A stretch of 62,592 nt of DNA, filler included, from Deltaproteobacteria bacterium (GTDB lineage Bacteria; JAGRBM01; JAHCIT01), in the NCBI GenBank assembly GCA_026129095.1. It is 3 parts of 3 records of this genome, joined end to end, with 100 filler letters (N's around TTAATTAATTAA, not from the genome) between each part and the next. Parts side by side here need not be neighbours in the genome. Positions count along the whole stretch, not along the records: positions 1 to 30,482 come from JAHCIT010000017.1; 2 more parts are not named here. One strand, given 5' to 3'. Position 1 is the first letter of the stretch; every line of letters begins with the position of its first letter. The notes below the pieces were generated by a model. It searched no databases. It had not been told where the DNA came from and saw only the letters and a list, made by a program, of their open reading frames with translations. The position numbers were made by a program, and so were the translations under genes. Below, piece by piece: positions 14,201-30,582 of the stretch.

Positions 14201-17200
14201 GTCAATCCATCGCCGTTGAAGTCTCCGGACACATATCTGTTCTGGTTATTGTATGCCGGGGCACCGGGCATGCTGTCCCAGCCGCCCAAGGTACCACTCG
14301 ACATGCTGATGCTGTTCTTGTTCCAGTCAACAGAGAACACCTGAAGCTGGACCGTTTCTTCCGGGTTCGAAACGGTTCCATCCGGGGCGACCACGACGCC
14401 CGCGCCATACTGGGTTATATTGGATAAAAGGTACCTCGCGGTCCATCCGCTGATTTCGTAATCGAGAGCGTATGCACGGATGTTCTGCTCATTGGAACTG
14501 ACGGCAACAGCGTTCAGGTACCGGCCTATTTCAAGAAGGTTGCTTCCGGTTGCATATGACGGCTTTGCGGATTCACTCGACCGGCTGGCCGTATAAAATA
14601 CCACTCGGTATGGGCCGTATTCTATGCTTTGAAGATATACTTCGCGGTTCCCAAGACTGGTATACGAGTAGCTGACCGTATTCCCAAACACATCGGTGAC
14701 TTCGACGATATCCCAGCGGAATACCTGGTTCCCCGAATACACCGTCTTCTCGTAGGTCATCCGGGTGCCACGGGTATCCCACACGTACCACCTGTCGTTC
14801 ACAGAATCCCGCTGGATTTTGGTATAGTTATCCCATTTGGTAACATGAGTTGCCCCGGGACGGCTGGCACATATGTCCTGGAAACCGCTGCACGGGAGCA
14901 GTTCGTTGCCGTCGAGCGAGAACTTGTCGCTGCTCACATATCGCGGAGCCCCGTTCGTGCTGGAGCTGCGCACAATGCTCGACGTGCCCGCAAGCTGGAA
15001 TCCCACACCGACCCATCCGTCAACGCCATTGGAACTGTAGTTCAGCGAGAGCCTGGGTTCGATATCATAATACTTCGGCACCTCTATCGGGATGGAAGTC
15101 GTGAATGCCCCTGTAGACGGATCCACCTGTCCCAGATGCGGCACCTGGGGCATCTTGGGGATGTAATCCGACACGGGGATATTCCCGAGGCCCTGCCCCG
15201 CATCCACCTCGTTGTCATGCACTTCAATGCTGAACGGGCCGAGAATCGCCACGACCCCGGACTGATCGACCAGTTCGATCACGATATCAGCATAAACTCC
15301 CGAGTCATCCTCTCCAGGAGTTCCGCTCAACTTGCCATCGCCCTGGTCAAATTGCGCCCAATCGGGAAGCCCCGTGATCTGGAATGCATAATTTTCCGGT
15401 GCATTCGAGATGACCGGGACGTACTCATAGTACTGTCCTTCGATAGCACTCGTTTCTGGCAGATTAGCGAATGCCGGTGGCGCGGTCCCGGTGACCTCGA
15501 TGCTGAATTCCGGCAGCTCATCAAAACCGCCCATGATATCCTCGACATTGATAACAATACCTGCATATTCGCCAACATCGTCGAGCCCGGGAACGCCGTA
15601 CAAACTTCCTGTAGCGGTATCGAACGCCGCCCATGCCGGGAGGTTAACGATACCGAATGTCAGTACGTCGCCGAATTCAATGTCGGGATCCCACGCATCG
15701 GGAGTAAAGAAATAGGTTTCACCGAACAGGATAGCGGTTTCCGGGCTTCCGGATATCGCTGGTGGCGTATTTTCACCTTCCACACTGATCGTGAATGCTG
15801 GCAGACGCGAATAGTCTCCAAACGGATCACGTACAATAATGACGATGTTCTCGTAAACCCCGGTTTCGAAATAGCCCGGGACACCGGCGAGCATTCCGGT
15901 CTCTGGATCGAACCCGGTCCAGTAGGGCGGGTTCTCGATGCTGAAAACCAGAGAGCCATTATCCCCTACGTCCGGATCTGACGCCATCGGGGTAAAAGAA
16001 TAAAGGACTCCCCAGCCGGCAGTTTCCGGAGGGACACCGGAAATCTGCGGCGGACTGTTCGCACTGGAAAACCGAATTTCGAACGGACCTGCAACTGCGA
16101 ACTCTCCAAAGCGGTCGGACACGTACACATGGATATCGATCCATACCCCTGCATCAGATTCCTGAGGAGTCCCGAGAAGCCGGCCGGTGACCGGATCGAG
16201 AGATAGCCAGAGCGGCAGATTTGTCGCACTGAACTGCAGCACGTCTCCATGGATCAGATCGGGATCATCGGAAGAAAAGGTGAAGTCATAGATTACTCCC
16301 ACCGATGCCGAATCCGGCGGATTGCCTTCGATGGTTGGCGGATCGTTGGCATTCATGACCTCGATCGTAAACGGGCCGACACGGAACACTTCTGTATCGG
16401 AATTGGAACGGACGATTATTATGCCATCATAGACGCCCACATCCCCGTTCGTGGGTATCCCATATAGTTCCCCTGTCACGAAATCGAACTCTGCCCATGA
16501 CGGCTTGTTGACTATTTCAAATATCGGCTCGCCCCAGATGCCGAGATCGACAGGATAGTAACTGTAATACTGCCCCTGTATGGCGAATACGTCCGGATGG
16601 GCAGACTGCATGATCTCATGGGTTGCGGACGGAGCGATCCAGTATATGTCGTTCTGACCAATGTAGTAGGCCATTTCCGAAGAAGTATGCTCGCCGAGCA
16701 CTTCTACGCGGTTCACAGGGAACTGGGACGCGTACCCCGCCACTTCCAGCGATGGCTGACCTGAATACAGATTCTTTATCGATAATAGATATGCCGGATG
16801 CGACGACGCCGTATTGCAATGTTGTGGCGGATACTCGGATCCCGAAATTACCGTATATGCGAAGTTTCCTATTTTCGTAAACAGCGAGTTTCCGTATTGA
16901 AGATAGTTCTGCAGAGTAACGGCATCCGAGACCGCTCGTGGTATAGATGATGGCGCATTTGGCACAGAAGGCAGAAGTCCTGCCGGTATATCGTTGAGTG
17001 AGACAGAAATTGTCTCTGGAACCGACCAGATATTTCTCGTCAACAATACTTGCTGTGGATTAATGTGAAAATAATCTGGGAGCTGACTGTGCAAGATATC
17101 AATTGACACAAATGTGGAGTCGTCGATAAAGGAAGCCGCGACGCCCCCCATGTCCCTGACGTTTGCTCGCATAAGTATATCATCTGAAACCACGCTAATA

Positions 17201-20200
17201 AGCTCAACACCCCATCGTACATATCCCTTTCCGTACGAAAGAAGTTCGGGGACAACTCGCCCCTGATTCTCTAGTGGAGCACCAATACCGTAGTATGAAA
17301 TACTGGTTGTGAAGGTTACTTCAGGTTCCGAATACTCAATGCCTTCAATCACGGCGAAACCCTGGCCGCAGCAAGGAAACTGGAAATTCCCTGGGCGGTT
17401 ACCGTACAGGCGAACTACGACAGAGTCCTCGGTCAACGCGATTCCACGCCCATGCGCGGCCATATCCGGCACCCAGACAGCTTCGAACTCCAGCTCGCCC
17501 GTCTGGATGCCGCGCACGATGACAATGATATTGTCCCCTATGCTTGGGCTGGAAGGCACCCACAAATAGTCCGGCCCGCTGCCGGCGATCACGACCGTGT
17601 CATCGCTTGTCGCTATCGGTGCAAGCGCATCGTTTGGACCAAAGCCGACAGCTGGATGATCGGCATAGATGCTTCCGCCCGGAACCCCCCAATATGGATG
17701 AACCAGTTCCGGGATAACCACGTTTTCATATGTGATTTCACCATCACTGAGGCCTCGCATAACGACTATGGTATCGTCGTTGTTCGTTACGTGGTTTGGG
17801 ATTCCGTCTTCACCCCAGGTAAGTGCGACAGCCGTGAACTCATTGACAACCGTCCATTCGGTCCGAACGGGGTAGGGAGGACTGATCTCCACGACTTCGG
17901 GGATTGGCGTGTCCAGATAACGGACAAGGAACCGGTCGGGTGTTCCGCTGGGACAATGTGTCGGGCAGATAAACCTGGCAAGCATTGCAGAATCCGAAAC
18001 CCGAACCGGGCTGCTGCCGATAATTTCCGGGAAATGTCCGTTTTCTCCGGATGTTGTCAGCAGAGTGAGGCCCGAAAATCCTATTACGGCCAGTAGGTCG
18101 TCATTAAGTTTTACACTTGGGCTTGGCAGGTGATTGACCCCAGAGAATACAGGTACATCAACAGCAGTGTTCAGTCGCTGCATAGGGTCAGCGAGTACTT
18201 CGAATGTCCTAGAACCCCAAGAAACGGGGCCATAATTCAATTCCAAGGTGTAGTGACCGACCTTTAGCGGCTGCGTCCAGAAATTACTCTCGGCCACATT
18301 CCAAACGTCTCTGAAAGGAATTATCGGGATCGCACGCGAATGTCCGAAGCCATCTAGGCTGAGACTGGAAAAAACATACTGGCTATCAGCAGTTCTCTTC
18401 AGACTCGCATATTCGCCCACACCCAGATTGGCATCCCCATCAGGGGGATCGGTTTCAGCACAAAGCGCGTTTCCGTCCCACGCGACGGAGAATATCGGAA
18501 ATTCGACCGGGCCGGATGGCTCTGTTCCGGTTCCTGTCAACGGTATCTCGGTTATTGCTGCTTCGTTTACATACCCCAGCACCAGACTGGCCAATCGCTG
18601 ACCGGTTTCAGACGGATTGAAGACTATCTCAAAGCCGATATATTCACCCGGTCCGATATACGGTGGAAAATCCGGCGCGCCGGAAAAATCGGGTGTGCTA
18701 CCTAAGGCAAAATCCGAGGCGGCAGTTCCAAAGAAATTGGTTACGGCGGGGTTCAGATCAACTTCCAGTAATTGCTCTGTCATATTATGGCAGATCACAC
18801 CAGTTGAACTACTCCCAGAGTTTGCAGTTACAGCGCCGAAGTCGATAATTCCCGGAATGCATGTCAATCCGGAACCGGATTGCACGGCCACGACCGCCTG
18901 AGCTGAAACCGGCCCACTTTCGCCGTTGCAAGTGAACGTATATACCGTCGACACTGGCGGCGCGACCTGTACGTTTCCCGATGTATCGACAGGAATACTG
19001 TTAATCTCACAGGATGTCGCATTGACGGCAAGCCACGCGAGCATCGAAGCATCGCCGGAACCAATTACCGGCGGGGTCGCAGAAAAATGCACGATCTGAA
19101 CAGGATCGGATATATTTTCTCCGATTCCAGTCAACAGAATTTCCGTCGGCTCACTGCTCGTAACGTATTCGAAACTGATTACGGAACTGAGCGGACCGGT
19201 TTCCTGGGGCCTGAATATAATTCCAAAGGTTACATAGTCACCGGGATGGAATATTCCCGCAGAAATATCCTCTCCCGAGACGCCCGCCACGCTGATGTCG
19301 AAGTTTTCGCTGTCAGTAACTGCAAAAGAATTCATATCGACGGCAACATTGTCCAGCAGCTCATTCGTGCAGGTTATAAAGCTCGTGTCCGATTCAGCCC
19401 CGACCCCAACAGCGCCGAAATCGATCTGCTCAGGCATGCAAGTGAGCATCGCGTCCGCGGGCGGTTCGTCCCCTTCCAGAACCAGCACCAGCCGCGGCGG
19501 ATTTCCGCTTTCCTTCGAATCAAATTCGATCAGGCCGCCCTGACCCTCTTCGGTCTTGCGGACTAACCAACCGTAGTTTTCCTTCGTGCCAGCCAGAAAG
19601 GCGATGACATCCGCCGTCACATCCCAGGCGACCGTTCCTGTTTGCGCGTTCTGGATCAGTACCGTTCCGGTTGGTACTGTTTCCATGGGCCACAAACCGG
19701 GATTTCCCATCGACCACTCGGTTGCGCCCGAACAGTCTTTGGCAGTATTGGTGATATTCGTGTCAATGGCGCAGTTCCAGGTAGCGCCCGGACCATCGCC
19801 CCGGTCGCTGGGGGTTGTGCCAGCTACCTTTCCATTGCCTTCGGCCCAGTCCTGGAGCATCCGGTGGACGTCCACCGTGCGGCCAGGGCCCCAGTTGTTG
19901 CCGGTATTCAGAATATCGGCCTCCAGATAAGCAGCCAGCACAGTGCGGCCGGCGACAAACGAGACCAGATCCGGGTGTCCAAACCGGACCAGCACCCGGT
20001 TGTTTCCAGCCTGCTGAACCCGCAGGAGGGCCGCACCACCCTCGTTGGTATTGGGTGAGCCGTTATAGATAAACGTATCGGCCGCCGCCGTCAGCGTCAC
20101 CGTCACGGCGATGTCGAAGGCGGGCAGGCTGGCGCCCTGGTTTTCGCTGTCCGTCACCGTGATGACGATGTTGCGGTAAATGCCCGCATCGCCCGCCGAA

Positions 20201-21069
20201 GGCGTCCCGGAGAGCGCGCCCGTTTCCGGATCGAAATCCAGCCAGTGCGGCCTGTTCTGGACCGAAAACGTGAGGATGTCGCCCGGATCGGCATCGCTTG
20301 CCACGGGCGCGAAGAAATAGGCCGATCCCTCATTCACCCGGAACGGCGGGTTGCCGGCAATCACCGGCGGGAAGTTGCCGCCGGGAGGAGGTTCCACCAC
20401 CAGCACCAGAACCGGTTTGGAAGCGGTTTCCCGCGACGAGAAGGTTATCGATCCGCTCGCACCCTCGTCCGTCTTCCGGACGATCCAGCCGTTGTTGGGA
20501 GTCCCGAGGACAAACGCCTCCACGTCGGCCTTCACGTCGAACGAGACCGTGCCGCCCTGGCCATTCATGATCAGCTGCGTGGCCGTCGCCGCAGATTCCC
20601 ACGGCCGCTCGCCGCTGCCGCTCATGGACCATTCGGCTGCCCCCGTACAGTCCTTGGCCGAATTGGCGATGCTGGAATCGACAGCGCAGTTCCACGTGGC
20701 CCCGCTGCCCGTGCTCCCGTTGCCTTCGGCCCACGGCACGGTGACGCGGTGCAGATCGATGGTCCTCCCCGAAGCGCCCCAGTTGTTGCCATTGGCGGAG
20801 ATAGTCAGTTCCAGCGTGGCCGACAGCAGCGTGCCGCCGCCCACGGCGGCATCGACCGCCACCTGCGGGAACCGGACGAGCACACGATTGTTCCCGCTCG
20901 CCTGGATCTGGAGAGCGGCCGAACCGCCTTCGTTGGTGTTGGCCGCGCCACTTCGGACATACGTATCGGCTTCGGCTTCGATCGAAATCGTGACCGGTTC
21001 GGCCAGGGCCGCATTCGGGAAAACTCCGGTAATCAGCAGTCCTGCAAAAACAGGCAAAAGACGGCGCAT
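8233..21069 (-). CDS. Giant secreted Rhs/YD polymorphic toxin: 2 DNRLRE-like domains, putative Ig repeats, 2 ASH-like Ig domains, SpvB-like domain, FG-GAP repeats, Rhs core, HExxH C-terminal domain
   Basis: GGGGGAG RBS before ATG 21069; Sec signal MRRLLPVF...ALA; ADTYV...N.G...P.LVL (twice); P.W..FD..TG.L.G.P repeats; GAFTTSIPIEVP...PRLSLNYSS...GWVGVG; GDFNGDG repeats; YD repeats; HGDHLGS...RYYDP..GRFISADP...NNPLNRVDVDG. Confidence 0.9.
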   Translation of the reverse strand: MRRLLPVFAGLLITGVFPNAALAEPVTISIEAEADTYVRSGAANTNEGGSAALQIQASGNNRVLVRFPQVAVDAAVGGGTLLSATLELTISANGNNWGASGRTIDLHRVTVPWAEGNGSTGSGATWNCAVDSSIANSAKDCTGAAEWSMSGSGERPWESAATATQLIMNGQGGTVSFDVKADVEAFVLGTPNNGWIVRKTDEGASGSITFSSRETASKPVLVLVVEPPPGGNFPPVIAGNPPFRVNEGSAYFFAPVASDADPGDILTFSVQNRPHWLDFDPETGALSGTPSAGDAGIYRNIVITVTDSENQGASLPAFDIAVTVTLTAAADTFIYNGSPNTNEGGAALLRVQQAGNNRVLVRFGHPDLVSFVAGRTVLAAYLEADILNTGNNWGPGRTVDVHRMLQDWAEGNGKVAGTTPSDRGDGPGATWNCAIDTNITNTAKDCSGATEWSMGNPGLWPMETVPTGTVLIQNAQTGTVAWDVTADVIAFLAGTKENYGWLVRKTEEGQGGLIEFDSKESGNPPRLVLVLEGDEPPADAMLTCMPEQIDFGAVGVGAESDTSFITCTNELLDNVAVDMNSFAVTDSENFDISVAGVSGEDISAGIFHPGDYVTFGIIFRPQETGPLSSVISFEYVTSSEPTEILLTGIGENISDPVQIVHFSATPPVIGSGDASMLAWLAVNATSCEINSIPVDTSGNVQVAPPVSTVYTFTCNGESGPVSAQAVVAVQSGSGLTCIPGIIDFGAVTANSGSSSTGVICHNMTEQLLEVDLNPAVTNFFGTAASDFALGSTPDFSGAPDFPPYIGPGEYIGFEIVFNPSETGQRLASLVLGYVNEAAITEIPLTGTGTEPSGPVEFPIFSVAWDGNALCAETDPPDGDANLGVGEYASLKRTADSQYVFSSLSLDGFGHSRAIPIIPFRDVWNVAESNFWTQPLKVGHYTLELNYGPVSWGSRTFEVLADPMQRLNTAVDVPVFSGVNHLPSPSVKLNDDLLAVIGFSGLTLLTTSGENGHFPEIIGSSPVRVSDSAMLARFICPTHCPSGTPDRFLVRYLDTPIPEVVEISPPYPVRTEWTVVNEFTAVALTWGEDGIPNHVTNNDDTIVVMRGLSDGEITYENVVIPELVHPYWGVPGGSIYADHPAVGFGPNDALAPIATSDDTVVIAGSGPDYLWVPSSPSIGDNIIVIVRGIQTGELEFEAVWVPDMAAHGRGIALTEDSVVVRLYGNRPGNFQFPCCGQGFAVIEGIEYSEPEVTFTTSISYYGIGAPLENQGRVVPELLSYGKGYVRWGVELISVVSDDILMRANVRDMGGVAASFIDDSTFVSIDILHSQLPDYFHINPQQVLLTRNIWSVPETISVSLNDIPAGLLPSVPNAPSSIPRAVSDAVTLQNYLQYGNSLFTKIGNFAYTVISGSEYPPQHCNTASSHPAYLLSIKNLYSGQPSLEVAGYASQFPVNRVEVLGEHTSSEMAYYIGQNDIYWIAPSATHEIMQSAHPDVFAIQGQYYSYYPVDLGIWGEPIFEIVNKPSWAEFDFVTGELYGIPTNGDVGVYDGIIIVRSNSDTEVFRVGPFTIEVMNANDPPTIEGNPPDSASVGVIYDFTFSSDDPDLIHGDVLQFSATNLPLWLSLDPVTGRLLGTPQESDAGVWIDIHVYVSDRFGEFAVAGPFEIRFSSANSPPQISGVPPETAGWGVLYSFTPMASDPDVGDNGSLVFSIENPPYWTGFDPETGMLAGVPGYFETGVYENIVIIVRDPFGDYSRLPAFTISVEGENTPPAISGSPETAILFGETYFFTPDAWDPDIEFGDVLTFGIVNLPAWAAFDTATGSLYGVPGLDDVGEYAGIVINVEDIMGGFDELPEFSIEVTGTAPPAFANLPETSAIEGQYYEYVPVISNAPENYAFQITGLPDWAQFDQGDGKLSGTPGEDDSGVYADIVIELVDQSGVVAILGPFSIEVHDNEVDAGQGLGNIPVSDYIPKMPQVPHLGQVDPSTGAFTTSIPIEVPKYYDIEPRLSLNYSSNGVDGWVGVGFQLAGTSSIVRSSSTNGAPRYVSSDKFSLDGNELLPCSGFQDICASRPGATHVTKWDNYTKIQRDSVNDRWYVWDTRGTRMTYEKTVYSGNQVFRWDIVEVTDVFGNTVSYSYTSLGNREVYLQSIEYGPYRVVFYTASRSSESAKPSYATGSNLLEIGRYLNAVAVSSNEQNIRAYALDYEISGWTARYLLSNITQYGAGVVVAPDGTVSNPEETVQLQVFSVDWNKNSISMSSGTLGGWDSMPGAPAYNNQNRYVSGDFNGDGLTDIAITTNNWRGWRVYLSNGNGWKTEWWEDKNIESDSQGGYVCYQAICNNENRFIVGDFNGDGRSDILVVHSNSTKFRIFVSSPSTSNSSGYAFKYRTVSANLKRNGVLVPICDWSCADERVNILSGDFNGDGKTDIVAARGGVNWSSAFATTDETLNSHSWHIWYGKSSTTAVSFTRYRKLYTQNSDWRPCLDDCQPDDVRFIVTDMNGDGYSDILRFMKSTAFATNVYAYFGKDGEGFTHIDTERKYLCGEDCSATKLFAGDFNGDGKQDVYFGPLHWILYSNGYDFRIGFPKFTGDGRPCGDCGQSDLLLALDINGDNRADLIGTTANSTKVRYGFAKKSSIGETTFETKEYSHNVCQGDCNRENGAIQIGDFDGNGKQDVFTFLATGQPRVHLTGKTADRPDLVDAIVSITGTRTEVDYISSANWPGNKVPVGLLLGTVKSLRTAYRTNSASSTEDVLSEQAIVTEYSYSGLEWSQEERRPFGFTRFAQRNWEEIVEIVEKKPDKTVTKLTRKPLELQQEADMSRNLACIGRPVETRILDMSKPASERLLARSVTSYIPEAGPPYTCRSGETVAETYGPGGGLWIRRQEVLSYDSYGQPLVVVNHGDANASGDETVSVTEYAYNPVDYIVGTPRRQLVCAGISPELCSSTGSGRISEARYCYDGDTDSGDDPLCSEPPPEGRVTRKRQWDSNGDGPERWLTSDMRYDPVNGNPLASSLSYFGDEMPVFNPDTEYDESGLYPVASFNHLGHVSEQVFDPVMGVQLCGRNPNQVVIYSRYDSLGRLISSSAPEKYTGTLDIEACTKDDAWWDANWAVRKSYVLDSTSNYTVTRNRAAVTGPAASEIFETIEIRDGLGRNIQTKHRTGTGTHVVSGLVAYDALGRVRYQYDTFDEEGGSDTVWTGFTQASGDARIRKTEFLHDSVGRVSSVKFVGGGQAFVEYQLGETTVTDPKGNTRVAFSDIHGRNYRIDEFAVSGTRLTTLYDFDPVTGRLMRIGRDTDNNGYLGGADRVDAEFSYNSLGQTLHLTDINTGVTTYSYDAMGNVARKTDARGNEAVYSFDELGRLVLKCAKAGAGVDDPLGLTKSFGTSPVEATAQGACGAGEVEIASYTYDNPAANGIGALDTLADLSGTTAYSYDLQGRITGIVKRMDPDSQTNAWRTFTLSRSFDLLGRLQNIVYPDRENVCYGYDERSQLVGIVGYDDDGDGNPSDCGAAGVDTRTYLQGATYDPVFGSLLMMEFGNGTTTTREYHASTRRLKVLETLDSQAELLQKTAYAYDRTGNITAILDFRAPGNTQHFTYDGLSRLLTASGGYGNLAYSYDGVGNFQTFEGPPPVAYDTAGGVTHPDAMVSGPGGWSAAYDLNGNMTVRTPSSISPTHLYSWGYDNRLATASAIDSGPPEHLVSMVYDGHGARVIRYADGAPTYYFGNWFELRPAMAVKHIMGPGGVIASVSYNPASKPSLGGFMATVSLGDRLRERARRTWSAAANPSLGPAGAKARIQIASLAAALASVLWLLWLADPLWRFRRLVRALETAGERDLREAMEAARIRAAVRVERRRARGGYRWRWRQGVAAGLVLAIGFAAAACEEQRWGAGGRQMGAVAYSTGTAIAEGDQPIWLHGDHLGSVVAVTDASGAELSRMDYKPFGEVWSSSGTAPASDRTFTRKRQDAGLGLMNFENRYYDPLVGRFISADPRQLEPAPLQAMRMAEWDYQNGSANAGSMPEERLADWRGRTFAPQDLNRFSYVLNNPLNRVDVDGYGFWKWVKRFVLKVLSNLVSLVLQAIFRYILPFQLPNFGLSDALWDMIDRLAGNMFVIGADAATYASTQRKGGIGFHGYLVGAKTTMLGLSAGLAAIAVGAMQGKNVGVHAESVNGTGTIVFSGAGFVVGKASAQTIGHAMLLKVERNGYFKHKPYSFWLDHESLHLQQAGVLGEGYLASHITMGALAMMFGRELKDDQGNVLRDKWHDPKINFLEDHESNSPWKWGRWP

Positions 21070-21329
21070 GTTCCAGACTCCCCCACCGAAAGCGGTCCCC
21101 ACCGCTCCCAGCCTTCAGCTCAGCGGCGTTCTGCCGCAGAATGATGTGTGGTTACTGGTGCTTATATATCAAGAACATGCTGTCGGGTTCAATCGAAATT
21201 ATTTGGAAATATGTCATCCTGCTGAAATCACGGAGAGTTTCCGTCACGGGCAAATCGGGGTGTGCGCTTCGTCACCTTCCGCAAAATATTTCCCGGTCCA
21301 GAATATGTCTGTAAGGCGAGGATTTTCCC

Positions 21330-23027
21330 ATGGACGAATATCTGTGGCCGGCGCGGAATGTCGCCGAATACGCCTACTGCCCCCGGCTCTTCTACCTGAT
21401 GGAGGTCGAGGGCGTTTATCTGCCGAACGAGGAGACGGAAGCTGGCAAAGCCGTTCACAAGCGGGTGGACCGTCCGAGTTCCGATACGGAAGACGAAGTA
21501 AGGCCCAAAAGCGTTCGCAGTCTTACGCTCACCAGTGGCCGGTTGAAACTGACAGCCACGCTCGATCTGGCCGAAATCGACGGCAACCACGCCATACCGG
21601 TCGAATACCGCAAGGGGCGTCCGAAGAAGACCGTCATGGCCCCGCCGCCGGACGACCCTGGCGAATCTGATGAACCGCCCCTTGCCTCCACGGAACCCTG
21701 GCCCACCGACCGCGTCCAGATTGGCCTTCAGGTCATCCTGCTGGAAGAGGCCGGTTATGCCGTCCCCGAAGCTTTTCTCTACTACGCCGCCGAGAAACTG
21801 AAGCTGGCCGTGCCGGTTGACGAGGCGCTCAAAAAAGATGCGCTTGCCACCCTGGAGGCAGCCCAGGTCTGCGCAAGGGGGAGCCGCCCGCTTCCGCTTG
21901 TGAACGACCGGCGCTGCGAGGGCTGCTCGCTCCAGCCGCTTTGCCTGCCGGACGAGGTTAATTACGAACGGGCCGGGGATCCCGGCTCCATGCCCTCTCC
22001 CCGCAAGCTCTGGCCGCCCCGAAGCGACGGCATTCATCTGGTGGCCCAGCAGAAAGGAACCCGCATCGGCGTAAGAGGAACCTCCGTGCGAATCACCGAC
22101 GACCGGGGCTCTGTGGTCAAGGAAATCCCGCTCGTGAACATGGAAAGCCTCTCGGTACTGGGTTCCGTCCAGATATCCACCCAGGCTTTGCAGGTATTCG
22201 CGGACCGGGAAATCCCGGTGGCCTATCTGTCGCCTGCCGGGCGCCTGGTTGCGCTCGTCGAGCCCGCCACCAGCACCAGCGGCCATATCCGGCGCGCCCA
22301 GTTCAAGGCGCTGGATGCCGAAACCGTCAAACTCGAACTGGCCCGGGCGCTGATCACGGCCAAAATCCTGAACCAGCGCAAACTCCTTCAACGCAATCAT
22401 GCGGCACTGCCGGACGGCGCCCTGGACAACCTCACGCGGGAAGCCGAGGCCGCCGCCCGCGCCGAATCCACCGACAGCCTTCGTGGGCACGAGGGGCGAG
22501 CGGCGGCCATCTATTTCGGCCTTTTCAGCGGCATGATCCGGCCGGAAGCCGGCAGGGAGTTCCAGGCGAATGGCCGCCAGCGCCGCCCGCCCCCCGACCC
22601 TGTCAACTGCGCCCTGTCGCTGGCCTATTCGATGCTCACCCATGAGGCGACGGCCGCTCTCCGGACGGCCAGCCTCGAAACCTCCATCGGCGCTTTCCAC
22701 GTTTCACGGCCGGGCCGCCCGGCGCTCTCGCTCGACCTCATGGAACCGTTCCGTCCGCTCATCGCCGACTCCTGCGTGATCGCAGGATTCAACAGGGGTG
22801 AGTTCCGCGATGGCCATTTCGCCAGAACCGCCGCCGGATGCATGTTCACCGATCACGGCCGGAGGGCCTTTTTTAACACTTACGGCCGCCGGATGGACGA
22901 CGAGGTCACCCACCCGGAGTTCGGCTACCGGCTCTCCTACCGGCGGATGATCGTCCTGCACGCACGGATGATCGCCGCGTGGTTCATGGGCGAGGTGCCG
23001 AGGCTATCATTCCTGACAACCCGGTGA
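21330..23027 (+). CDS. cas1: CRISPR-associated Cas4-Cas1 fusion
   Basis: Cas4 part: EYAYCPR plus CEGCSLQPLC (4 Cys). Cas1 part: GHEGRAA.IYF, RPPPDPVN..LS..Y, GAFH, LSLDLMEPFRPLIAD. Confidence 0.95.
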   Translation: MDEYLWPARNVAEYAYCPRLFYLMEVEGVYLPNEETEAGKAVHKRVDRPSSDTEDEVRPKSVRSLTLTSGRLKLTATLDLAEIDGNHAIPVEYRKGRPKKTVMAPPPDDPGESDEPPLASTEPWPTDRVQIGLQVILLEEAGYAVPEAFLYYAAEKLKLAVPVDEALKKDALATLEAAQVCARGSRPLPLVNDRRCEGCSLQPLCLPDEVNYERAGDPGSMPSPRKLWPPRSDGIHLVAQQKGTRIGVRGTSVRITDDRGSVVKEIPLVNMESLSVLGSVQISTQALQVFADREIPVAYLSPAGRLVALVEPATSTSGHIRRAQFKALDAETVKLELARALITAKILNQRKLLQRNHAALPDGALDNLTREAEAAARAESTDSLRGHEGRAAAIYFGLFSGMIRPEAGREFQANGRQRRPPPDPVNCALSLAYSMLTHEATAALRTASLETSIGAFHVSRPGRPALSLDLMEPFRPLIADSCVIAGFNRGEFRDGHFARTAAGCMFTDHGRRAFFNTYGRRMDDEVTHPEFGYRLSYRRMIVLHARMIAAWFMGEVPRLSFLTTR

Positions 23028-23043
23028 TGAGGAGGGGAAAACC

Positions 23044-23334
23044 GTGCGCCGCTGCTATCTCGTCTGCTACGACATCCGCGATCCCAAACGCCTGCGCCGG
23101 GTTCACAAGGCCATGAAGGGTTATGGCGAACCGTGGCAGTTTTCGGTCTTCTTCTGCGTCCTGAAGAACATCGACCGCGTCCGCATGCAGACCGATCTCG
23201 AAACGGAGATGAACCAGCGGGACGACCAGATTCTGGTCATCGACATGGGCGGCGATGAAGAAGCCGCCCGGAACGCGGCCGTCGTCCTCGGCCAGTCCAT
23301 GAAACCGGCCGACAGCGGAATGGTGGTGGTGTGA
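23044..23334 (+). CDS. cas2: CRISPR-associated Cas2
   Basis: YLVCYDIRDPKRLRRV...GEPWQFSVF; GAGGAGG RBS; follows cas1. Confidence 0.95.
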   Translation: MRRCYLVCYDIRDPKRLRRVHKAMKGYGEPWQFSVFFCVLKNIDRVRMQTDLETEMNQRDDQILVIDMGGDEEAARNAAVVLGQSMKPADSGMVVV

Positions 23335-23354
23335 GGCAGCAGTTCGCCCGCGAA

Positions 23355-23714
23355 TCAGATCAGTTGCAGGAAATTGGCCGGCGCGAAAATCCCGTGCCGG
23401 CGAAGCGCCTCCGGCGACTCGCGTTCGCACAGCGCCCTCACGCTCTTCAGACGCTCGGCGGCAGCAAGCGCGAAGAACGGCGTCCCGAGCGAGCCTTCAC
23501 GCTTCGTCCATTCAGGCGAGGCAACCCGGCTGCGTTCGGCAAGCAGTTCCGCCAGCGCAGCAGCGGCGATCCGCACCCGGCGGTCGGTTGACTCCGGAGG
23601 CGCAAAAGACGCCGGCAGGTCGCCGAGCCGCGCCCATTCGAGAGCAAGCTCCCTCAGCCGCAGGGCGTCCCGTGCGATCAGCGCTTCCGCCATCTGTTCC
23701 AGCAAGGCTTTCAC
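23355..23714 (-). CDS. Small helical partner protein of the nucleotidyltransferase (putative antitoxin)
   Basis: 119 aa; GTGA overlap with the upstream NTase; AALAELLA...PEW...PFF...SPEALRRHGIF pattern, recalled from partners of DUF6036-type NTases. Confidence 0.65.
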   Translation of the reverse strand: MKALLEQMAEALIARDALRLRELALEWARLGDLPASFAPPESTDRRVRIAAAALAELLAERSRVASPEWTKREGSLGTPFFALAAAERLKSVRALCERESPEALRRHGIFAPANFLQLI

Positions 23715-24238
23715 AACGTCTCCCAGAGATCGTCCAGCGCGTATTTTGCCTTCAATTCGGTGCCGGGTTCAAGGTACGGAAGCATGGCAGCCCAGGCGGC
23801 CTCGCGGCCCATCCCGGTCTCCTTGAGCCTGCGGACCAGCGTTTCGGCATCCGAGATATCCAGATCGTCCCGCCACGCCGACAGCTTCATGGCTGCCAGC
23901 TGGGCGACCGACGGAATCGCGACCTCGATCCCCGGAGCCGAAAAGATGACCGTTTCCTGAACCGGTGGCCGGACATACGCCTTCGCCGCATCGTTCAGCC
24001 AGTCATCGGGCAACCCCAGTTTCGATCCCACCCCGGTGGCAAGCCGTCGCACCTGCGATGCATCGGCCGGTTCGAGGAAAACCGAATCGATGTCGTAGGT
24101 GCTGTCACGGCTGCCGAATCCCAGCGCCATCGCGGCTCCCCCGACGACCAGCAGACGTATCCGCGTGCCGTCCGCGAGAGCGGCCGCGCCCAGCTCACGA
24201 AAGGCGTTTTCGATGGCGGTTTTGGAGAGACGGGACAC
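23711..24238 (-). CDS. Nucleotidyltransferase, DUF6036/AbiEii/MenT-like (putative toxin)
   Basis: GGAGG RBS; LVVGGAAM...RDSTYDID (GG...DxD); WLND; MKLSAWRDDLDISDA (K..A.R..D..D). Confidence 0.8.
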   Translation of the reverse strand: MSRLSKTAIENAFRELGAAALADGTRIRLLVVGGAAMALGFGSRDSTYDIDSVFLEPADASQVRRLATGVGSKLGLPDDWLNDAAKAYVRPPVQETVIFSAPGIEVAIPSVAQLAAMKLSAWRDDLDISDAETLVRRLKETGMGREAAWAAMLPYLEPGTELKAKYALDDLWETL

Positions 24239-24330
24239 GTCGGCAGCCTCCGGAAGGTCCGTCAGTAAAGCCTACCCGGTTTTTCACCGGACCGGGCATT
24301 CGTCCCGTTGTATTCTTCGGAAAAACAACA

Positions 24331-24347
24331 GTGACACGTCTTGTCAC
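24331..24347. promoter_or_regulatory. Palindromic operator GTGACA-N5-TGTCAC in the divergent NTase/cas12b promoter region
   Basis: Perfect 6-bp arms in the 207-bp intergenic region. Confidence 0.5.
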
Positions 24348-24445
24348 CGGACCATGCCAGTATGGACTGGAAGTGGAAATGGCCGTCCATGGAAGTTAGG
24401 ATTTTGCAAACACGAAGGAACTTCCATCCGGGAGAGGGTAAACCG

Positions 24446-27400
24446 ATGCCTCAAAACCAAACCATTACGCCAACTCAACGCGCATACACTCTGCGGCTCC
24501 GCGGAGCGACAAAGGACGACAATTCCTGGCGCGACGCCATCTGGAAAACCCACGTCGCCGTCAACAAGGGTGCGAAGGTCTTCGGGGACTGGCTGCTGAC
24601 GTTACGGGGCGGCCTGGATCACAATCTGGCCTCTGACTCTTTCGGCAAAAAAACACCTTCTGAGACCGAAATCCGGAACCGGAAAATACTGCTCGCATTG
24701 TCGTGGCTGTCGGTGGAATCCAGGGAAGGAGCACCGGCAGATTACATTATCCCTGCGACAGACACGGAAGACACGCTAAAAGAGATACTTCATGGGCGCG
24801 GGGTTATTGGGAAAGACGCGGACGAATGGGTCGCCATGGCTGCTCCGTCATTAACAGCCGCGATTCGTGACGATGCTGTATGGGTGAATCGCAGCAAGGC
24901 GTTCGATTCATTCGCAAAAAAAATGCCTTCCGGTTTCGATCGAACATCTGCGTCCGCCGTCATCTTTGGCTTCTTCGGAAAGCCCGAAGCGTATTTTTTC
25001 ATCGAAGCTGCCAATACTTCGGATGGTGACGAACCGGGCGCGGAAGAAAAGCCTCCGACTGGTAAGGACGTAGACGAACCGGCCGACTTCTCGAATACGG
25101 CTCGCAGCTGGCTGAGTGCCAACTGGGGTTCAGGTGAAAAGGCCGACACCGAACATGTCGTCGGAACCCTGCAGCGAATTGGGAAAACCGATCTAACCAG
25201 TTTTGACGGCGATGAACCAGAGGCCTTGCTCAGGTTCCTCGTTACGTGCTGCAACGGACAGATCGACCCCACCACGGATAAGGTGACCCTGCTGAAGACT
25301 ATCGGGAAGCTGATCGGATGGAAGGGTGCACCCTCGATGGGGCGAAAGGCGCTCGAGAAAGTCGCTGAATCCAGACAGGTAACACAGGAACTCATCGACA
25401 ACCTTCAGGACAAGTTCCTGTCGGAGGCCACCGACAAGAGCGAAGACATCGGGAAAGTTATTCCGGAGTGGATTCGTCAACTACGGCCGCAAATCGAAGG
25501 CGCGATCGGGATAACGTTCCGTGCTCCTACTTCCGATGACAGGGAACGGGATTTGATCGGCGAGTATTCGGTCCTGCTCGACCACGCAGCCCGCCGCGTT
25601 TCCATTGCACATTCCTGGATCAAGTGGGCCGAAGCCGAGCGGCAAAGGTTTGAAGATGACGCGATGAAGAAAAATAATATACCGTCGGCCGTCAGGGATT
25701 GGCTCGACGACTTCTGTCAGAAACGTTCTCAGACGTCGGGGGCTGAAAATCAATACCTTATCCGGAAGCGTGCGCTTGAAGGCTGGAAAGAGATTGTCGC
25801 CGCGTGGAGTACCCAATCCTGCAAGACGAGGGACGACCGCGTTCAGCGTGCACGGGAAAAACAGGATGAACTGGACAAATTCGGAGATATCAACCTGTTC
25901 GAACGGCTTGCCGATGACGACGCGCGTGTCGTCTGGGAATCAGGACCGGATCACCTGATCAATTATTCCGCCGCTCAGGTTGCCGGACATAACCAGCAAC
26001 GCTTCAAGGTGCCTGCCTACCGGCATCCCGAACCACTCAAGCATCCCGTATTCTGCGATTTCGGCAATTCACGCTGGTCGATCTCCTTCGATATTCATGA
26101 AGCCGTTAAGAAGGCCACGAAAAGTGCGGCAAAACCTGCAAAGAAAAAGGCTTCCAGCAACGCCGAGGTCACCGGGGAAATCCCGTCTACCGACGACCGC
26201 ACTCTTTTGTTGGGCCTATGGAATGGAAACTCCGTTGGCGACAGACAGCTTCGTTTCGCCTCCAAACGTTTACAATGGGATATTACGTCCCCATTGCCTA
26301 ACGCTGGCGAAAAAACCGAAGTCGTTCGTGCCGACCGGTTCGGACGGGCTGCGACCGGGGCGGCCATTACAGAATCTGTTTTGGCGAAAAGCATTTTCGA
26401 ACAAGATTACTGGAACGGCCGCCTCCAGGCCCCTCGCGCCCAGCTAGACCGACTCGCCCATTACCTAGAGAGAAAAGGTTTAGACTGGACTGAAGAAAGC
26501 CGGTGGGACGGGAAAGCCCGAGCTTTGCGCGACCGGATCAACTGGCTGATTACGTTCTCAGCCAAGCTGACGCCTCAAAAGGGACCATGGCTTGAGTATG
26601 CCGATGCGAATGGTCTTAAGCTCTATTCAAAACCATCCGACGATGGTGCCTATCCTTTCAGCCGGCCAGGGCAGGACAAACAGGAAAAACGCGGTTCCAT
26701 GGCCCGTCTCGTGCTTTGCCGCCTTCCTGACCTACGCGTGTTGTCTGTAGACCTCGGTCACCGGTTCGGGGCCGTCTGTGCGGTCTGGCACACGCTGTCG
26801 GGTGAGCAATTCCAGAGAGAATGCAAAGCCGCCAGGAACGAAGGTGCGGAAGTCACGGTCAGGGACCTGTACTGCCACATCAAATTTCCCAAGAAAAAAT
26901 CGAATAACCCCAGCAAGAAACAGCAGAAAGAAGGGAAGGACGATTTTCATCCAATCCGCATATACCGCCGGATCGGCGGCGACCTGCTGCCTGACGGTTC
27001 ACCTCATCCCGCGCCCTGGGCGCGGCTGGAGCGCCAGTTCACCATCAAGCTCCAGGGGGAGGATCGGAAAACTCGGCGGGCAACTGCAGATGAAATGAAC
27101 CGTGTCCGGAATTTCGAGGCGGAAATTGGCCTTGTCAGACGCGCCGATGAAAAACTGCCCATCCGTGTCGATGAACTCATTTCCCAGACCGTCAGGAATG
27201 GGCGACTGGCATTACAGCGTCACGGCCGGCGCGCTAAGATTGCGTGGGGCTTCCTGACAGACGAACAGCATCTCCCCGGCGGTCGCTTCGCACCTCTCAC
27301 GGCCGACGCACGCAAAGAGCTTTACGAAAACACGCTGCGCGACTGGGCTGATCTGGCTACAGACTCGCGATGGCGGGACACAGCTTCCCGCGAACTTTGG

Positions 27401-28822
27401 GAAATTCATGTTCAGATACATCTGAAAGATCCCCAGGTGGAAGAAACGCGCCAAGGCCGCGAAGACCGGCTTGCCTCGATGAAAGATGGGATCGCTTCGG
27501 TAGCCCAAAAGCTGGTCACCGATGCGAGTCTACGCAGTAAACTCCATCAGGTTTGGGCGACCCGCTGGCATACCGATAATAAAAACTGGAAAGAGCGACT
27601 TCGCTGGCTGCATGACTGGATTTTGCCACGAGGGATTCGTAAGGAACGGAAAGATAAATTGAAGATGGTGCGGGGAATGGGCGGATTATCAGTCGAACGC
27701 ATCAACTCCATTAAAGCGCTATACCAGATTCAAAAGGCCTATCGCACTCGCCCCGAGCCGGGTGATCCGAGAAAAAACGTCCCTCAAAAGGGAGACAATT
27801 CTCTCAATAAGTTCGGCCAATCCATTCTCGACACCTTGGAAGAACTGCGCACCCAGCGCGTGAAGCAGCTTGCCAGCCGGATTGTCGAGGCCGCACTCGG
27901 AATCGGTATTGAGCCGAAGATCAAAGGTCCCAAGGATGTCCGCCGGCCGCGTGAGCGGATCAAGGATTCGCGCTTTGTTCCCTGCCATGCGGTTGTGATC
28001 GAAAACCTCCAGAACTACCGGCCGGATGAACTCCAGACCCGGCGGGAAAACCGGATGCTGATGAGCTGGGCGTCTGCGAAAGTGCGCAAGGCGCTTCAGG
28101 ATCACTGTTATCTGTATGGCCTTCACCTCCGGGAGGTTTCCCCGAACTACACGTCTCGTCAGGATTCGCGAACGGGAGCACCTGGCGTGAGGTGCACAGA
28201 CGTATCTGTTCACGATTTTCTTACGTCACCTCTTTGGCGGAAAGCGGTCAGCAGGGCAAAGGAGAATATCGGAAAGGGAAACACCGGAAGCGAACTCGAC
28301 CGCTATCTCGAGGGCCTTGATAACAGTCTCCAGAAGGAATGGGGATCAAAAAGCCGCGAGGAACGAAACCAAGCCAGACCAGTCCGTATCCCCCGCAAAG
28401 GCGGGGACCTGTTCGTTTCAGCGGACAAGGACTCGCCCGCCGCAAAGGGCCTCCAGGCCGATCTGAACGCCGCCGCCAATATCGGTCTCAGGGCACTCCT
28501 GGACCCCGACTGGCCGGGAGCCTGGTGGTATGTGCCGTGCGATCCGAAAACGAATATCCCGGTGAAAGAGAAGGTCCTGGGATCGGTTGCATTCGCTGAC
28601 AGCAAGCTTCCGCTGGTTCCTGTCCAAGAGGAATCGGAGTCTGCGAAAAGCAAAAGGGGTAGAACCAGGGGCGCGAAGGAAAAGACCGTCATTAACTGGT
28701 GGCGGGACCTGTCGGCAGAACCGGTTGGCCCCGGAAACGGCTGGAAAAACTACGGTGAGTATCAGAATCGTACTCAGTTCCGGGTCGTCCAGAATCTCCG
28801 GACTCACTCCAAGGATAATTGA
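24446..28822 (+). CDS. cas12b: Type V-B effector Cas12b (C2c1), long clade, 1,458 aa
   Basis: GGAGAGGG RBS before ATG 24446; N-terminus TQRAYTLRL...WKTHVAVNKGAKVFGDWLLTLRGGLDH, recalled from Desulfatirhabdium-type C2c1; RuvC-I RVLSVDLG (D at 26750), RuvC-II VVIENL (E at 28001), RuvC-III QADLNAAANI (D at 28460); cas4/1, cas2, tracrRNA and array adjacent. Confidence 0.9.
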   Translation: MPQNQTITPTQRAYTLRLRGATKDDNSWRDAIWKTHVAVNKGAKVFGDWLLTLRGGLDHNLASDSFGKKTPSETEIRNRKILLALSWLSVESREGAPADYIIPATDTEDTLKEILHGRGVIGKDADEWVAMAAPSLTAAIRDDAVWVNRSKAFDSFAKKMPSGFDRTSASAVIFGFFGKPEAYFFIEAANTSDGDEPGAEEKPPTGKDVDEPADFSNTARSWLSANWGSGEKADTEHVVGTLQRIGKTDLTSFDGDEPEALLRFLVTCCNGQIDPTTDKVTLLKTIGKLIGWKGAPSMGRKALEKVAESRQVTQELIDNLQDKFLSEATDKSEDIGKVIPEWIRQLRPQIEGAIGITFRAPTSDDRERDLIGEYSVLLDHAARRVSIAHSWIKWAEAERQRFEDDAMKKNNIPSAVRDWLDDFCQKRSQTSGAENQYLIRKRALEGWKEIVAAWSTQSCKTRDDRVQRAREKQDELDKFGDINLFERLADDDARVVWESGPDHLINYSAAQVAGHNQQRFKVPAYRHPEPLKHPVFCDFGNSRWSISFDIHEAVKKATKSAAKPAKKKASSNAEVTGEIPSTDDRTLLLGLWNGNSVGDRQLRFASKRLQWDITSPLPNAGEKTEVVRADRFGRAATGAAITESVLAKSIFEQDYWNGRLQAPRAQLDRLAHYLERKGLDWTEESRWDGKARALRDRINWLITFSAKLTPQKGPWLEYADANGLKLYSKPSDDGAYPFSRPGQDKQEKRGSMARLVLCRLPDLRVLSVDLGHRFGAVCAVWHTLSGEQFQRECKAARNEGAEVTVRDLYCHIKFPKKKSNNPSKKQQKEGKDDFHPIRIYRRIGGDLLPDGSPHPAPWARLERQFTIKLQGEDRKTRRATADEMNRVRNFEAEIGLVRRADEKLPIRVDELISQTVRNGRLALQRHGRRAKIAWGFLTDEQHLPGGRFAPLTADARKELYENTLRDWADLATDSRWRDTASRELWEIHVQIHLKDPQVEETRQGREDRLASMKDGIASVAQKLVTDASLRSKLHQVWATRWHTDNKNWKERLRWLHDWILPRGIRKERKDKLKMVRGMGGLSVERINSIKALYQIQKAYRTRPEPGDPRKNVPQKGDNSLNKFGQSILDTLEELRTQRVKQLASRIVEAALGIGIEPKIKGPKDVRRPRERIKDSRFVPCHAVVIENLQNYRPDELQTRRENRMLMSWASAKVRKALQDHCYLYGLHLREVSPNYTSRQDSRTGAPGVRCTDVSVHDFLTSPLWRKAVSRAKENIGKGNTGSELDRYLEGLDNSLQKEWGSKSREERNQARPVRIPRKGGDLFVSADKDSPAAKGLQADLNAAANIGLRALLDPDWPGAWWYVPCDPKTNIPVKEKVLGSVAFADSKLPLVPVQEESESAKSKRGRTRGAKEKTVINWWRDLSAEPVGPGNGWKNYGEYQNRTQFRVVQNLRTHSKDN

Positions 28823-28847
28823 ACTCTGGCAGTAATTTTGGTATAAA
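28819..28847 (+). promoter_or_regulatory. Sigma70 promoter for tracrRNA
   Basis: TTGAAC (28819-24), 17-bp spacer, TG-n-TATAAA extended -10 (28839-47); predicted TSS about 28854. Confidence 0.7.
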
Positions 28848-28853
28848 GGGTTT

Positions 28854-28950
28854 GCTCCTATAGGGAGCCTCGTTTCCACAGAATGTGTCTCCCCCTTCGA
28901 TGGGTTTAGCACTGTGGGGTTTATCAAGTCCGCGTCACTCGTTTGACGTG
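28854..28950 (+). ncRNA. Cas12b tracrRNA
   Basis: 5' hairpin GCUCC-UAUAG-GGAGC; stem UUCCACAG/CUGUGGGG enclosing GUGUC (28885-89, pairs with repeat end GACAC); anti-repeat 28919-36 pairs with repeat nt 13-30 at 16/18; 3' hairpin CGCGUCA/UGACGUG; exact 3' end uncertain. Confidence 0.85.
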
Positions 28951-29156
28951 AGGTGTTCTTTGACAAGTTGGCTTCGGCGAGTGCGGTGGTGGTGCAACTC
29001 CCCCTCGGGGGCACTCGCGCCACGGAAAGCGGCCGTGATCTCACGGTATTACGGCGAGCGGGCGGCCCAGGCAGCGGGTCTGAAATGTCCGGCTCCGGCA
29101 AGCGCTCGCGGATTTGACAGAAATGCCTGCGGTTCCGCCTGGTTGCGAGCGCCGCA
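28951..29156 (+). promoter_or_regulatory. CRISPR leader
   Basis: Non-coding stretch before repeat 1, with inverted repeats GCGAGTGC/GCACTCGC and GCGAGCG/CGCTCGC. Confidence 0.7.
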
Positions 29157-30482
29157 GCCGCCGGAGCCGACGCGGACCTGATCAACTGACACGAGTTCGA
29201 AGTGCGGAAGATCGCGGAACTTCTCGCCGCCGGAGCCGACGCGGACCTGATCAACTGACACAGTTTGTGGGCGTTCCGGCTCAGCGAAAATGGATGCCGC
29301 CGGAGCCGACGCGGACCTGATCAACTGACACTCGATATCCGGCTAGTGTGTCCAATGTGTCTCCGCCGCCGGAGCCGACGCGGACCTGATCAACTGACAC
29401 GCCGTGAGCATGGCGGACGGCGTCCAGAGCGCGTTCGCCGCCGGAGCCGACGCGGACCTGATCAACTGACACTAGCGGAGATCGCCTGCGGCCCATGCGG
29501 CCCTGACGGCCGCCGGAGCCGACGCGGACCTGATCAACTGACACCCTCCAGTTTTTCATCAACCGCCTTGATGGCGCTGGCCGCCGGAGCCGACGCGGAC
29601 CTGATCAACTGACACTATATTCCCTTGTCACCTAGTTTCCCGGCCCTGCTCATGCCGCCGGAGCCGACGCGGACCTGATCAACTGACACCCCCGGAACCA
29701 CAGCGATCCCGGTCGGGCTCACCGGCCGCCGGAGCCGACGCGGACCTGATCAACTGACACGGTGTGCGGCGCCCGCGTGAGCCGAGCCCAGCAGCGCCGC
29801 CGGAGCCGACGCGGACCTGATCAACTGACACCATGTCCAGGCTGCGGATGGCGGGGATCGGGACTGGGCCGCCGGAGCCGACGCGGACCTGATCAACTGA
29901 CACAACTGGAATGGAGGGGAGGGGCCAACCCTCTCCCCTGCCGCCGGAGCCGACGCGGACCTGATCAACTGACACGGCTCGCAGTCCGGGGACGTGACGC
30001 GCCTCAACCGCCGCCGGAGCCGACGCGGACCTGATCAACTGACACTTTACACCGGCCACTGCCGGAACGTGATAAGGAGCCGCCGGAGCCGACGCGGACC
30101 TGATCAACTGACACGATGGGGGCCCGCCGATGTGGGCGGGCTCACGGTGCCGCCGGAGCCGACGCGGACCTGATCAACTGACACCTTGATCTTGCGTTCG
30201 ATCTCATCGCCTTCGTTGCGCCGCCGGAGCCGACGCGGACCTGATCAACTGACACCCGGCCTTCTGGGGCGGGACCACCGGGTCGAAATGCGCCGCCGGA
30301 GCCGACGCGGACCTGATCAACTGACACGCCTTGCCGTAGGAATCCCGCAGGATTCTAGCGGCCGCCGGAGCCGACGCGGACCTGATCAACTGACACCGTT
30401 TCCGGGGCCGCTCCCCGGAACCGGCTCCGAGCCGCCGGAGCCGACGCGGACCTGATCAACTGACACTGACTCCTGGTCTGCG
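29157..30482 (+). CRISPR. CRISPR array: 19 identical 36-nt repeats GCCGCCGGAGCCGACGCGGACCTGATCAACTGACAC, 18 complete spacers (33-38 nt), truncated by the contig end
   Basis: Repeats start at 29157, 29226, 29296, 29365, 29437, 29509, 29580, 29654, 29725, 29796, 29868, 29940, 30010, 30079, 30149, 30220, 30292, 30361, 30431; the 3' CAC end and tracrRNA pairing indicate + orientation. Confidence 0.98.
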
Positions 30483-30582
30483 NNNNNNNNNNNNNNNNNN
30501 NNNNNNNNNNNNNNNNNNNNNNNNNNTTAATTAATTAANNNNNNNNNNNNNNNNNNNNNNNNNNNNNNNNNNNNNNNNNNNN
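30483..30582. other. Artificial contig linker
   Basis: N44-TTAATTAATTAA-N44 (stops in all frames). Confidence 0.97.

Follow-up and report, generated by a model that had tools for sequence, protein, structure and literature searches.

The question raised by this locus is whether a long Cas12b gene in the draft genome of a deltaproteobacterium belongs to a working type of immunity system and how far it departs from the Cas12b enzymes already characterized. The window analyzed here is a stretch of 62,592 nucleotides (nt) from assembly GCA_026129095.1, and in its first 30,482 nt it carries, on the plus strand, the gene order cas4/cas1, cas2, cas12b, trans-activating CRISPR RNA (tracrRNA), leader and array. 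We consider this very probably to be a complete type V-B CRISPR-Cas adaptive immunity locus, a reading carried by the observed gene identities, the intact catalytic residues, a covarying RNA fold and one TTG-flanked phage protospacer. The window is made up of three separate contigs joined artificially by linkers (N44 / TTAATTAATTAA / N44) at 30483-30582 and 59409-59508; gene neighborhood across these linkers is, therefore, meaningless. An initial annotation had described an apparently intact long-clade Cas12b with all of the components needed for reconstitution, and an effector, a tracrRNA and a repeat are each present in the locus. This parts list held for effector, tracrRNA and array but left the upstream cas4/cas1 and cas2 genes unlisted and passed over the array being incomplete at the contig end.

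An open frame extends from 24341 to 28822 on the plus strand, and the ATG at 24446 opens an uninterrupted coding sequence of 1,458 amino acids (aa). A Shine-Dalgarno-like run, GGGAGAGGG, lies immediately 5′ of this ATG, and the resulting N-terminus lines up with those of homologues, M1 being nearly invariant in the alignment. Open frame, start and homologue alignment all agree with the 1,458-aa open reading frame (ORF) that had been proposed at 24446-28822. The protein scored 852.3 bits against the NCBIfam NF033949 Cas12b equivalog model (cut-off, 150), covering model positions 1 to 1252 of 1253, with 703 bits for the PADLOC Cas12b model and 74 bits for Pfam PF22126, the C2c1 RuvC domain (cut-off, 27). 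No HNH domain was detected in a Pfam scan of the protein. Checked with hidden Markov models, the subtype assignment stood: the models matching over the full length were those of Cas12b and not those of another subtype.

The catalytic residues of a single split RuvC nuclease were located as D769 in VDLGH (26750-26752), E1186 in VIENL (28001-28003) and D1339 in QADLNAAAN (28460-28462), aligning to D767, E1220 and D1364 of ChCas12b, the enzyme of Candidatus Hydrogenedentes. In ChCas12b these residues are reported to coordinate two metal ions, and cleavage is abolished or strongly reduced in the mutants (PMC12204704); the D/E/D triad named in the initial annotation is thus equivalent to experimentally tested residues. 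The Lys-rich insertions it had listed were also found, at residues 555-571, 813-833 and 1399-1413, and coincide in the alignment with basic, gap-rich segments of ChCas12b; residues 567-581 are predicted to be disordered. An AlphaFold model of residues 1-736 (predicted local distance difference test [pLDDT], 80.4; predicted template modeling score [pTM], 0.74) was compared with solved structures by Foldseek, and ChCas12b was recovered with a template modeling (TM) score of 0.73 and 38% identity, followed by Cas12i (TM, 0.41-0.51), AacCas12b (0.41) and BthCas12b (0.38). Conserved columns, defined as those shared by at least 28 of the 31 sequences in the alignment, numbered 428; the studied protein departs from these at 28, mostly conservatively, within a range of 0 to 40 for the other 30 sequences. 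The predicted protein is an intact member of the long (~1,400-1,550 aa) Cas12b clade, with no sign of decay in its sequence.

The tracrRNA gene was placed at 28854-28950 on the plus strand by cofolding with the repeat and by covariation in 36 loci. The cofold begins with stem 1, a 15-nt hairpin (28854-28868), and a 7-nt linker (28869-28875), which lead into the 6-nt 5′ arm of stem 2 (28876-28881). After 3 nt comes anti-repeat 2, GTGTC (28885-28889), which would pair with the last five bases of the repeat, and after a further 3 nt stem 3, a 12-nt hairpin (28893-28904); 7 nt then separate this hairpin from the 6-nt 3′ arm of stem 2 (28912-28917), to which the 19-nt anti-repeat 1 (28918-28936) is joined directly. 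The initial annotation had placed the tracrRNA at 28854-28936, which is precisely the span from stem 1 to the end of anti-repeat 1. A terminator-like hairpin at 28931-28950, with a T-rich tail after it, is weak evidence alone, as one such hairpin was found and 0.8 were expected by chance. The lengths of the elements are identical to those of the ChCas12b single guide RNA (sgRNA), namely 15 nt for stem 1, 7 for L2, 6 for the first arm of stem 2, 3 for L3, 5 for anti-repeat 2, 3 for L4, 12 for stem 3, 7 for L6 and 6 for the second arm of stem 2; the sgRNA is described as having a six-pair stem 2 and a five-pair repeat:anti-repeat duplex 2 (PMC12204704).

Covariation was examined in related loci, for which one genome was taken per species; a relative of the protein was encoded by 187 of 590 candidate stretches, and 80 of these 187 were kept. 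A search of the 450 nt upstream of the arrays in the 47 related loci with GACAC-ended arrays yielded an anti-repeat candidate in 43, accompanied by GTGTC in 37 of the 43. Complementarity to the repeat of the same locus was the basis on which these sequences were selected, so that the anti-repeat does not constitute an independent test. The three stems were, however, evaluated on an alignment of 35 loci and the window (28846-28941), from which L038 (offset) and L053 (spurious match) had been dropped: pairing was present in 93.3% of cells, compensatory change was seen in 14 of 15 pairs, and none of 500 column shuffles reached any of the five measures. Sliding the partner by 1 to 3 columns lowered pairing to 36 to 49%, a comparison that favors the unslid register because the window sequence served to define the stems. 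Despite these caveats the two-sided change is large, providing strong covariation support for the predicted RNA, which has its anti-repeat and adjoins the array as in other V-B loci. In the aligned long-clade loci the tracrRNA lies 205 to 377 nt upstream of the first repeat, even where cas4/cas1-cas2 separate it from cas12b. Rfam gave zero matches at an E value of ≤1 over 28700-30482. A TTGAAC-N16-TATAAA arrangement seen by eye upstream of 28854 was rejected as a promoter, failing the rule of the promoter scan.

The array, which had been claimed to adjoin the tracrRNA, starts at 29157 on the plus strand and runs to 30482. A 36-nt repeat with GACAC at its 3′ end occurs in it 19 times without variation (29157-30466), the copies being separated by 18 unique spacers of 33 to 38 nt; 16 nt of a further spacer lie between the last repeat and the end of the contig. 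The repeat has the length, CAC end, effector strand and spacer position 3′ of the handle seen in type V-B. Arrays were found in 51 of the 80 related loci by the first method used, with the same repeat length, 3′ end and strand, and a CAC 3′ end is reported to be conserved in 13 of 15 repeats (PMC11423069). The interval 28951-29156, on the same strand, is presumed from its position to be the array leader.

Large collections were queried with spacer 1 only, the metagenome search being performed with its first 24 nt. This spacer (29193-29225), the one nearest the presumed leader, matched metagenome contigs L081 and L082 at 33 of 33 positions. The match is not flanked by repeat sequence; read in the sense of the spacer, its 5′ flank ends in ATTG, giving a TTG motif. 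L081 and L082 do not differ in the 1,822 nt compared and therefore represent a single distinct protospacer. Among the products of contig L081 (1-11521) are an internal virion protein (phrog_342, E = 3e-51), tail proteins, a tail fiber and an endolysin (phrog_465, E = 1.5e-32), with the protospacer located within the 3′ end of the endolysin ORF. These observations support real, recent immunity against a phage and, for this one protospacer (n = 1), a protospacer-adjacent motif (PAM) compatible with TTN; they also tie the contig of a podovirus-like phage to the host metagenome-assembled genome (MAG). The 24-nt query from spacer 1 gave no match in viral_contigs, and spacers 2 to 18 had no significant match in L081 or L082. 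A blastn search of reference phages and plasmids with the whole array gave chance-level results (best E values, 0.1 for phages and 0.03 for plasmids), some of which were matches to the repeat, and the 18 spacers had no significant match in the rest of the window or in the 80 related loci.

The adaptation module of a type V-B locus, a Cas4-Cas1 fusion with Cas2, is present at full length upstream of cas12b. The cas4/cas1 fusion gene (21330-23027, plus strand, 565 aa) matched NCBIfam NF049935 cas4g_cas1g at 613 bits (cut-off, 560) over residues 5-565, as well as Pfam Cas1 (269 bits) and Cas4 (52.5 bits), while cas2 (23044-23334, plus strand, 96 aa) matched TIGR01573 at 42.5 bits (cut-off, 24.5) and Pfam CRISPR_Cas2 at 59.3 bits. 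By tblastn, homologues of cas4/cas1 were detected in 54 and of cas2 in 58 of the 80 related loci. In 19 of the 80, including the nearest relative, the fusion gene precedes cas12b and shares its strand, and in 34 it lies downstream (one inverted); it was unseen in the other 27, among them many short contigs. These placement counts indicate that the gene order found here is a common variant. Three minus-strand ORFs in this region (21228-22700, 22704-22961 and 22984-23430) were tried as candidate genes and had no Pfam matches, and the first and third were rejected as antisense shadows of cas4/cas1 and cas2.

Between cas2 and cas12b there is an insert of ~1.1 kb (23335-24445) that is peculiar to the studied locus, no homologue having been found among the 80 related loci. 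Two minus-strand ORFs, of 175 aa (23711-24238) and 119 aa (23355-23714), are the most gene-like content of the insert; they overlap by 4 nt and have a GC content at third codon positions (GC3) of 0.75 to 0.76, which is gene-like and near the 0.78 of cas4/cas1. The 175-aa product is nucleotidyltransferase-like, with a weak match to DUF6036 (20.1 bits, under the cut-off of 23.6). Neither ORF had any PADLOC or NCBIfam match; the two probably stand outside the CRISPR machinery and may form a toxin-antitoxin-like cassette.

The place of the protein within its clade was examined by searching 5.8 billion proteins; 8,000 candidates were scored, and 557 matched at an E value of ≤0.001. One of the 120 matches listed was the query itself, and the other 119 were proteins of 1,375 to 1,545 aa with 41 to 47% identity, several of which carry the Cas12b name from NCBI. 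The top match in the whole search had 47% identity, and no close relative was found in the collections searched. Identity to the 30 aligned relatives was 44 to 49%, the nearest (L001, a Planctomycetales MAG, with P0002 and P0003) reaching 47 to 49% over the full length. Like the studied locus, L001 has cas4/cas1 upstream of cas12b; an array was not detected within 0.5 kb downstream of its cas12b. A quick unrooted tree of long-clade sequences, built without a short-clade outgroup and without ChCas12b, put the protein on a terminal branch with a length of 0.99 changes per column, sister to three Planctomycetota/Phycisphaeraceae proteins, with a Shimodaira-Hasegawa-like approximate likelihood ratio test (SH-aLRT) value of 87. 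By sequence, then, this is a divergent long-clade member, and its newness is limited to that divergence. The claim of a new orthologue is borne out to the extent that the protein is not near-identical to any characterized enzyme (42% to DtCas12b and 38%, N-terminally, to ChCas12b).

The description of the clade as much less studied did not survive. With 187 loci confirmed and ChCas12b, DtCas12b and NiCas12b characterized, the structure of the first having been solved by cryo-electron microscopy (cryo-EM), the clade is neither rare nor unstudied. The 80 kept loci come mostly from Planctomycetota MAGs, the others being Verrucomicrobiota, Desulfobacterota-type, Nitrospiraceae, Acidobacteriota and Dehalococcoidia MAGs, a Halobacteria MAG and two cultured strains. 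Long-clade loci were thus observed in a Halobacteria archaeon MAG (L070), in Thermomonas hydrothermalis DSM 14834 (L026) and in Heliobacterium mobile DSM 6151 (L053); the archaeal locus could reflect either horizontal transfer or a binning error.

Evidence of habitat and expression was sought in sequencing runs. Parts of 27800-30482 were detected in 13 of the 15 listed runs, from 8 studies of activated sludge, sludge and wastewater, an occurrence that suggests a mesophilic organism. Four runs were aligned to 21000-29300, and one DNA run (X1) contained a 10,001-nt contig identical over 23678-29192 that extends ~4.5 kb past 29192; this run may represent the sample from which the genome came. Two metatranscriptome libraries contained short contigs 99 to 100% identical to parts of cas4/cas1, cas2 and cas12b, a finding compatible with transcription of the cas genes; these contigs are weak evidence because DNA carry-over is possible, and, the libraries existing as contigs, RNA ends are not resolvable from them. 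One X1 contig has a joint that omits 22593-24178; this joint was treated as unrelated to the locus, as its shorter side is only 22 nt and the contig belongs to a 36-kb record of another depth.

The components described above suggest how the system might work. By analogy with ChCas12b, the tracrRNA (~28854-28950) would fold into its three stems and pair with the 3′ half of each repeat: GTGTC would anneal to GACAC at the repeat end, and 28918-28936 to the ~19 nt before it. Cas12b (1,458 aa) would bind this dual RNA and search DNA for a T-rich motif 5′ of the target, TTN being the likeliest PAM, after which the spacer-derived guide would form an R-loop and the single RuvC site (D769/E1186/D1339) would cut both strands, staggered as is typical of Cas12b, by a two-metal mechanism. 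Cas4/Cas1 and Cas2 would add new spacers at the leader end. We infer RNA processing, cleavage chemistry, PAM breadth and activity by homology with the characterized enzymes.

Several points weigh against a complete locus with a TTN-reading effector. The array is incomplete, as the contig ends at 30482; no contig from the two metatranscriptome libraries covered the tracrRNA or the leader; and a consensus scan of 28600-29300 found no sigma-70 consensus promoter for the tracrRNA. The PAM rests on one protospacer, and TT would occur by chance in ~1 of 16 cases. Furthermore, the PAM of ChCas12b is reported to be read mainly by a helical-Ib loop, P289-G290-Y-K292, with K292A and G290A being inactive (PMC12204704), and in the studied protein this PGYK loop is replaced by K293-G294-A295-P296 within GWKGAPSMGRK (residues 291-301; 25316-25348), so that SGPGYKS in ChCas12b stands opposite GWKGAPS. 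The loop also lacks two basic residues of the most similar loops, GWKGRPSKGR (P0017 and P0064).

A distinct PAM had been raised as a possibility in the initial annotation, and the loop makes it worth weighing whether a functional Cas12b here reads a PAM that deviates from TTN or extends beyond it. ChCas12b depends mainly on PGYK, and the studied enzyme lacks a loop of that type. The 31 sequences sampled comprise 18 with PG(Y/H)K, 12 with a GW-type loop (the studied protein included) and DtCas12b, which is unlike both; all 18 PG(Y/H)K sequences fall in a 22-member group (100% SH-aLRT), outside of which the studied protein forms its long branch. As only 18 of the 31 carry it, the PG(Y/H)K loop is a subgroup trait rather than a clade-defining one, and no characterized enzyme with a GW-type loop was found in the main-text passages of the two papers. 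Nevertheless, the only protospacer found carries 5′-TTG, which makes a distinct PAM less likely. The DtCas12b loop, DLSSYRGHSP, differs again, yet TTN is reported for that enzyme, and the authors of that report conclude that the PAM is conserved family-wide (PMC11423069). Other positions, G230, K337 (K334 in ChCas12b) and N541/S542 (N564/S565), are conserved. The difference in the loop stands; a PAM other than TTN, or wider than it, is unlikely. A wider version of this idea, in which the protein stands for a deep branch of long Cas12b that is associated with Planctomycetota and has no characterized member, and in which its unusual loop confers a relaxed or shifted PAM (such as tolerance beyond TTN) or different target-search kinetics, can be entertained because the loop lacks both the Lys required by ChCas12b and the two basic residues; we regard it as improbable, and, if true, it would offer a distinct editing scaffold.

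The long terminal branch (0.99 changes per column) and the foreign insert between cas2 and cas12b might instead point to a decaying or inactive remnant or to a Cas12b repurposed, for example, for binding without cutting, and the long orthologues PhyCas12b and BryCas12b, which are close to the studied protein in size, are not among the five enzymes reported as GFP positive in human cells (PMC11423069). Such a state is very unlikely given an uninterrupted ORF, an intact triad, 19 identical repeats with unique spacers, full-length adaptation genes and a leader-proximal spacer that matches a phage perfectly; conservation in the constrained columns is inside the family range, and there are no transposon genes nearby. 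For the effector, a type V subtype other than V-B (Cas12i, Cas12h or TnpB-like) is hardly credible. Weak secondary matches to Cas12i (32.6 bits) and TnpB models (25 to 28 bits) and the rank of the Cas12i structures, next after ChCas12b in Foldseek, are outweighed by Cas12b models scoring 20 to 30 times higher over the whole length and by the tracrRNA, the cas4/cas1 fusion and the GACAC-ended repeats typical of V-B relatives. The preferred reading is still that of a complete type V-B locus whose effector most likely reads TTN.

Outside this locus, a minus-strand ORF of 4,289 aa (8233-21102) resembles a giant polymorphic toxin of the Tc/RHS type, its domains being He_PIG, CBM96, FG-GAP, SpvB, TcdB-mid/N and RHS-repeat; it and cas4/cas1 are on opposite strands, ~230 nt apart. 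To the right of the linker at 30483-30582 are an epimerase gene and a glutamate-synthase-like gene, which have no linkage to the array.

The locus provides a complete and self-consistent parts list, comprising the effector, a covariation-supported tracrRNA, the repeat, a natural target with its PAM and the adaptation genes, and this Cas12b could join orthologue screens for genome editing or diagnostics. As the clade, the RNA architecture, the structure and the TTN PAM are already in print, the locus opens no new question and is a useful but ordinary find.

Among known systems the best solved relative is ChCas12b (1,496 aa; PDB 9KLN, 9KLO, 9KLP and 9KLQ), which matched at 1,044 bits and is reported to be active with a TTN PAM (PMC12204704). 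Residues 9-897 and 904-1453 of the studied protein, which is 38 aa shorter, align with residues 6-885 and 933-1475 of ChCas12b; the identity of ~38% refers to the N-terminal structural alignment only. A related protein from a Hydrogenedentota MAG (L036; 1,714 bits) was considered as a possible source of ChCas12b and proved to be a different protein. The cryo-EM study describes enlarged helical-I, oligonucleotide-binding (OBD), RuvC and helical-II domains in ChCas12b (PMC12204704), and the end-to-end alignment and the fold match indicate that the ~300 residues beyond the short enzymes correspond to such ChCas12b-type domains and are not private to this protein; the length singled out in the initial annotation as special is, therefore, typical of the clade. 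DtCas12b (1,529 aa) and NiCas12b (Nitrospira sp., 1,440 aa) are reported to use a TTN PAM and to work in human cells (PMC11423069). The former, from Dissulfurirhabdus thermomarina (WP_163299037.1; P0107 by accession), aligned over 99% of the query with 42% identity (666 of 1,579 columns) and carries, around its residues 555-640 and 920-975, long insertions absent from the studied Cas12b. The enzymes AacCas12b and BthCas12b (~1,108-1,137 aa; PDB 5U30, 5WQE and 5WTI) are ~320 to 350 residues shorter and matched at 51 to 75 bits, mainly in the RuvC region; they share subtype V-B and the RuvC triad with the studied Cas12b, for which their tracrRNA dependence and T-rich 5′ PAM are also probable.

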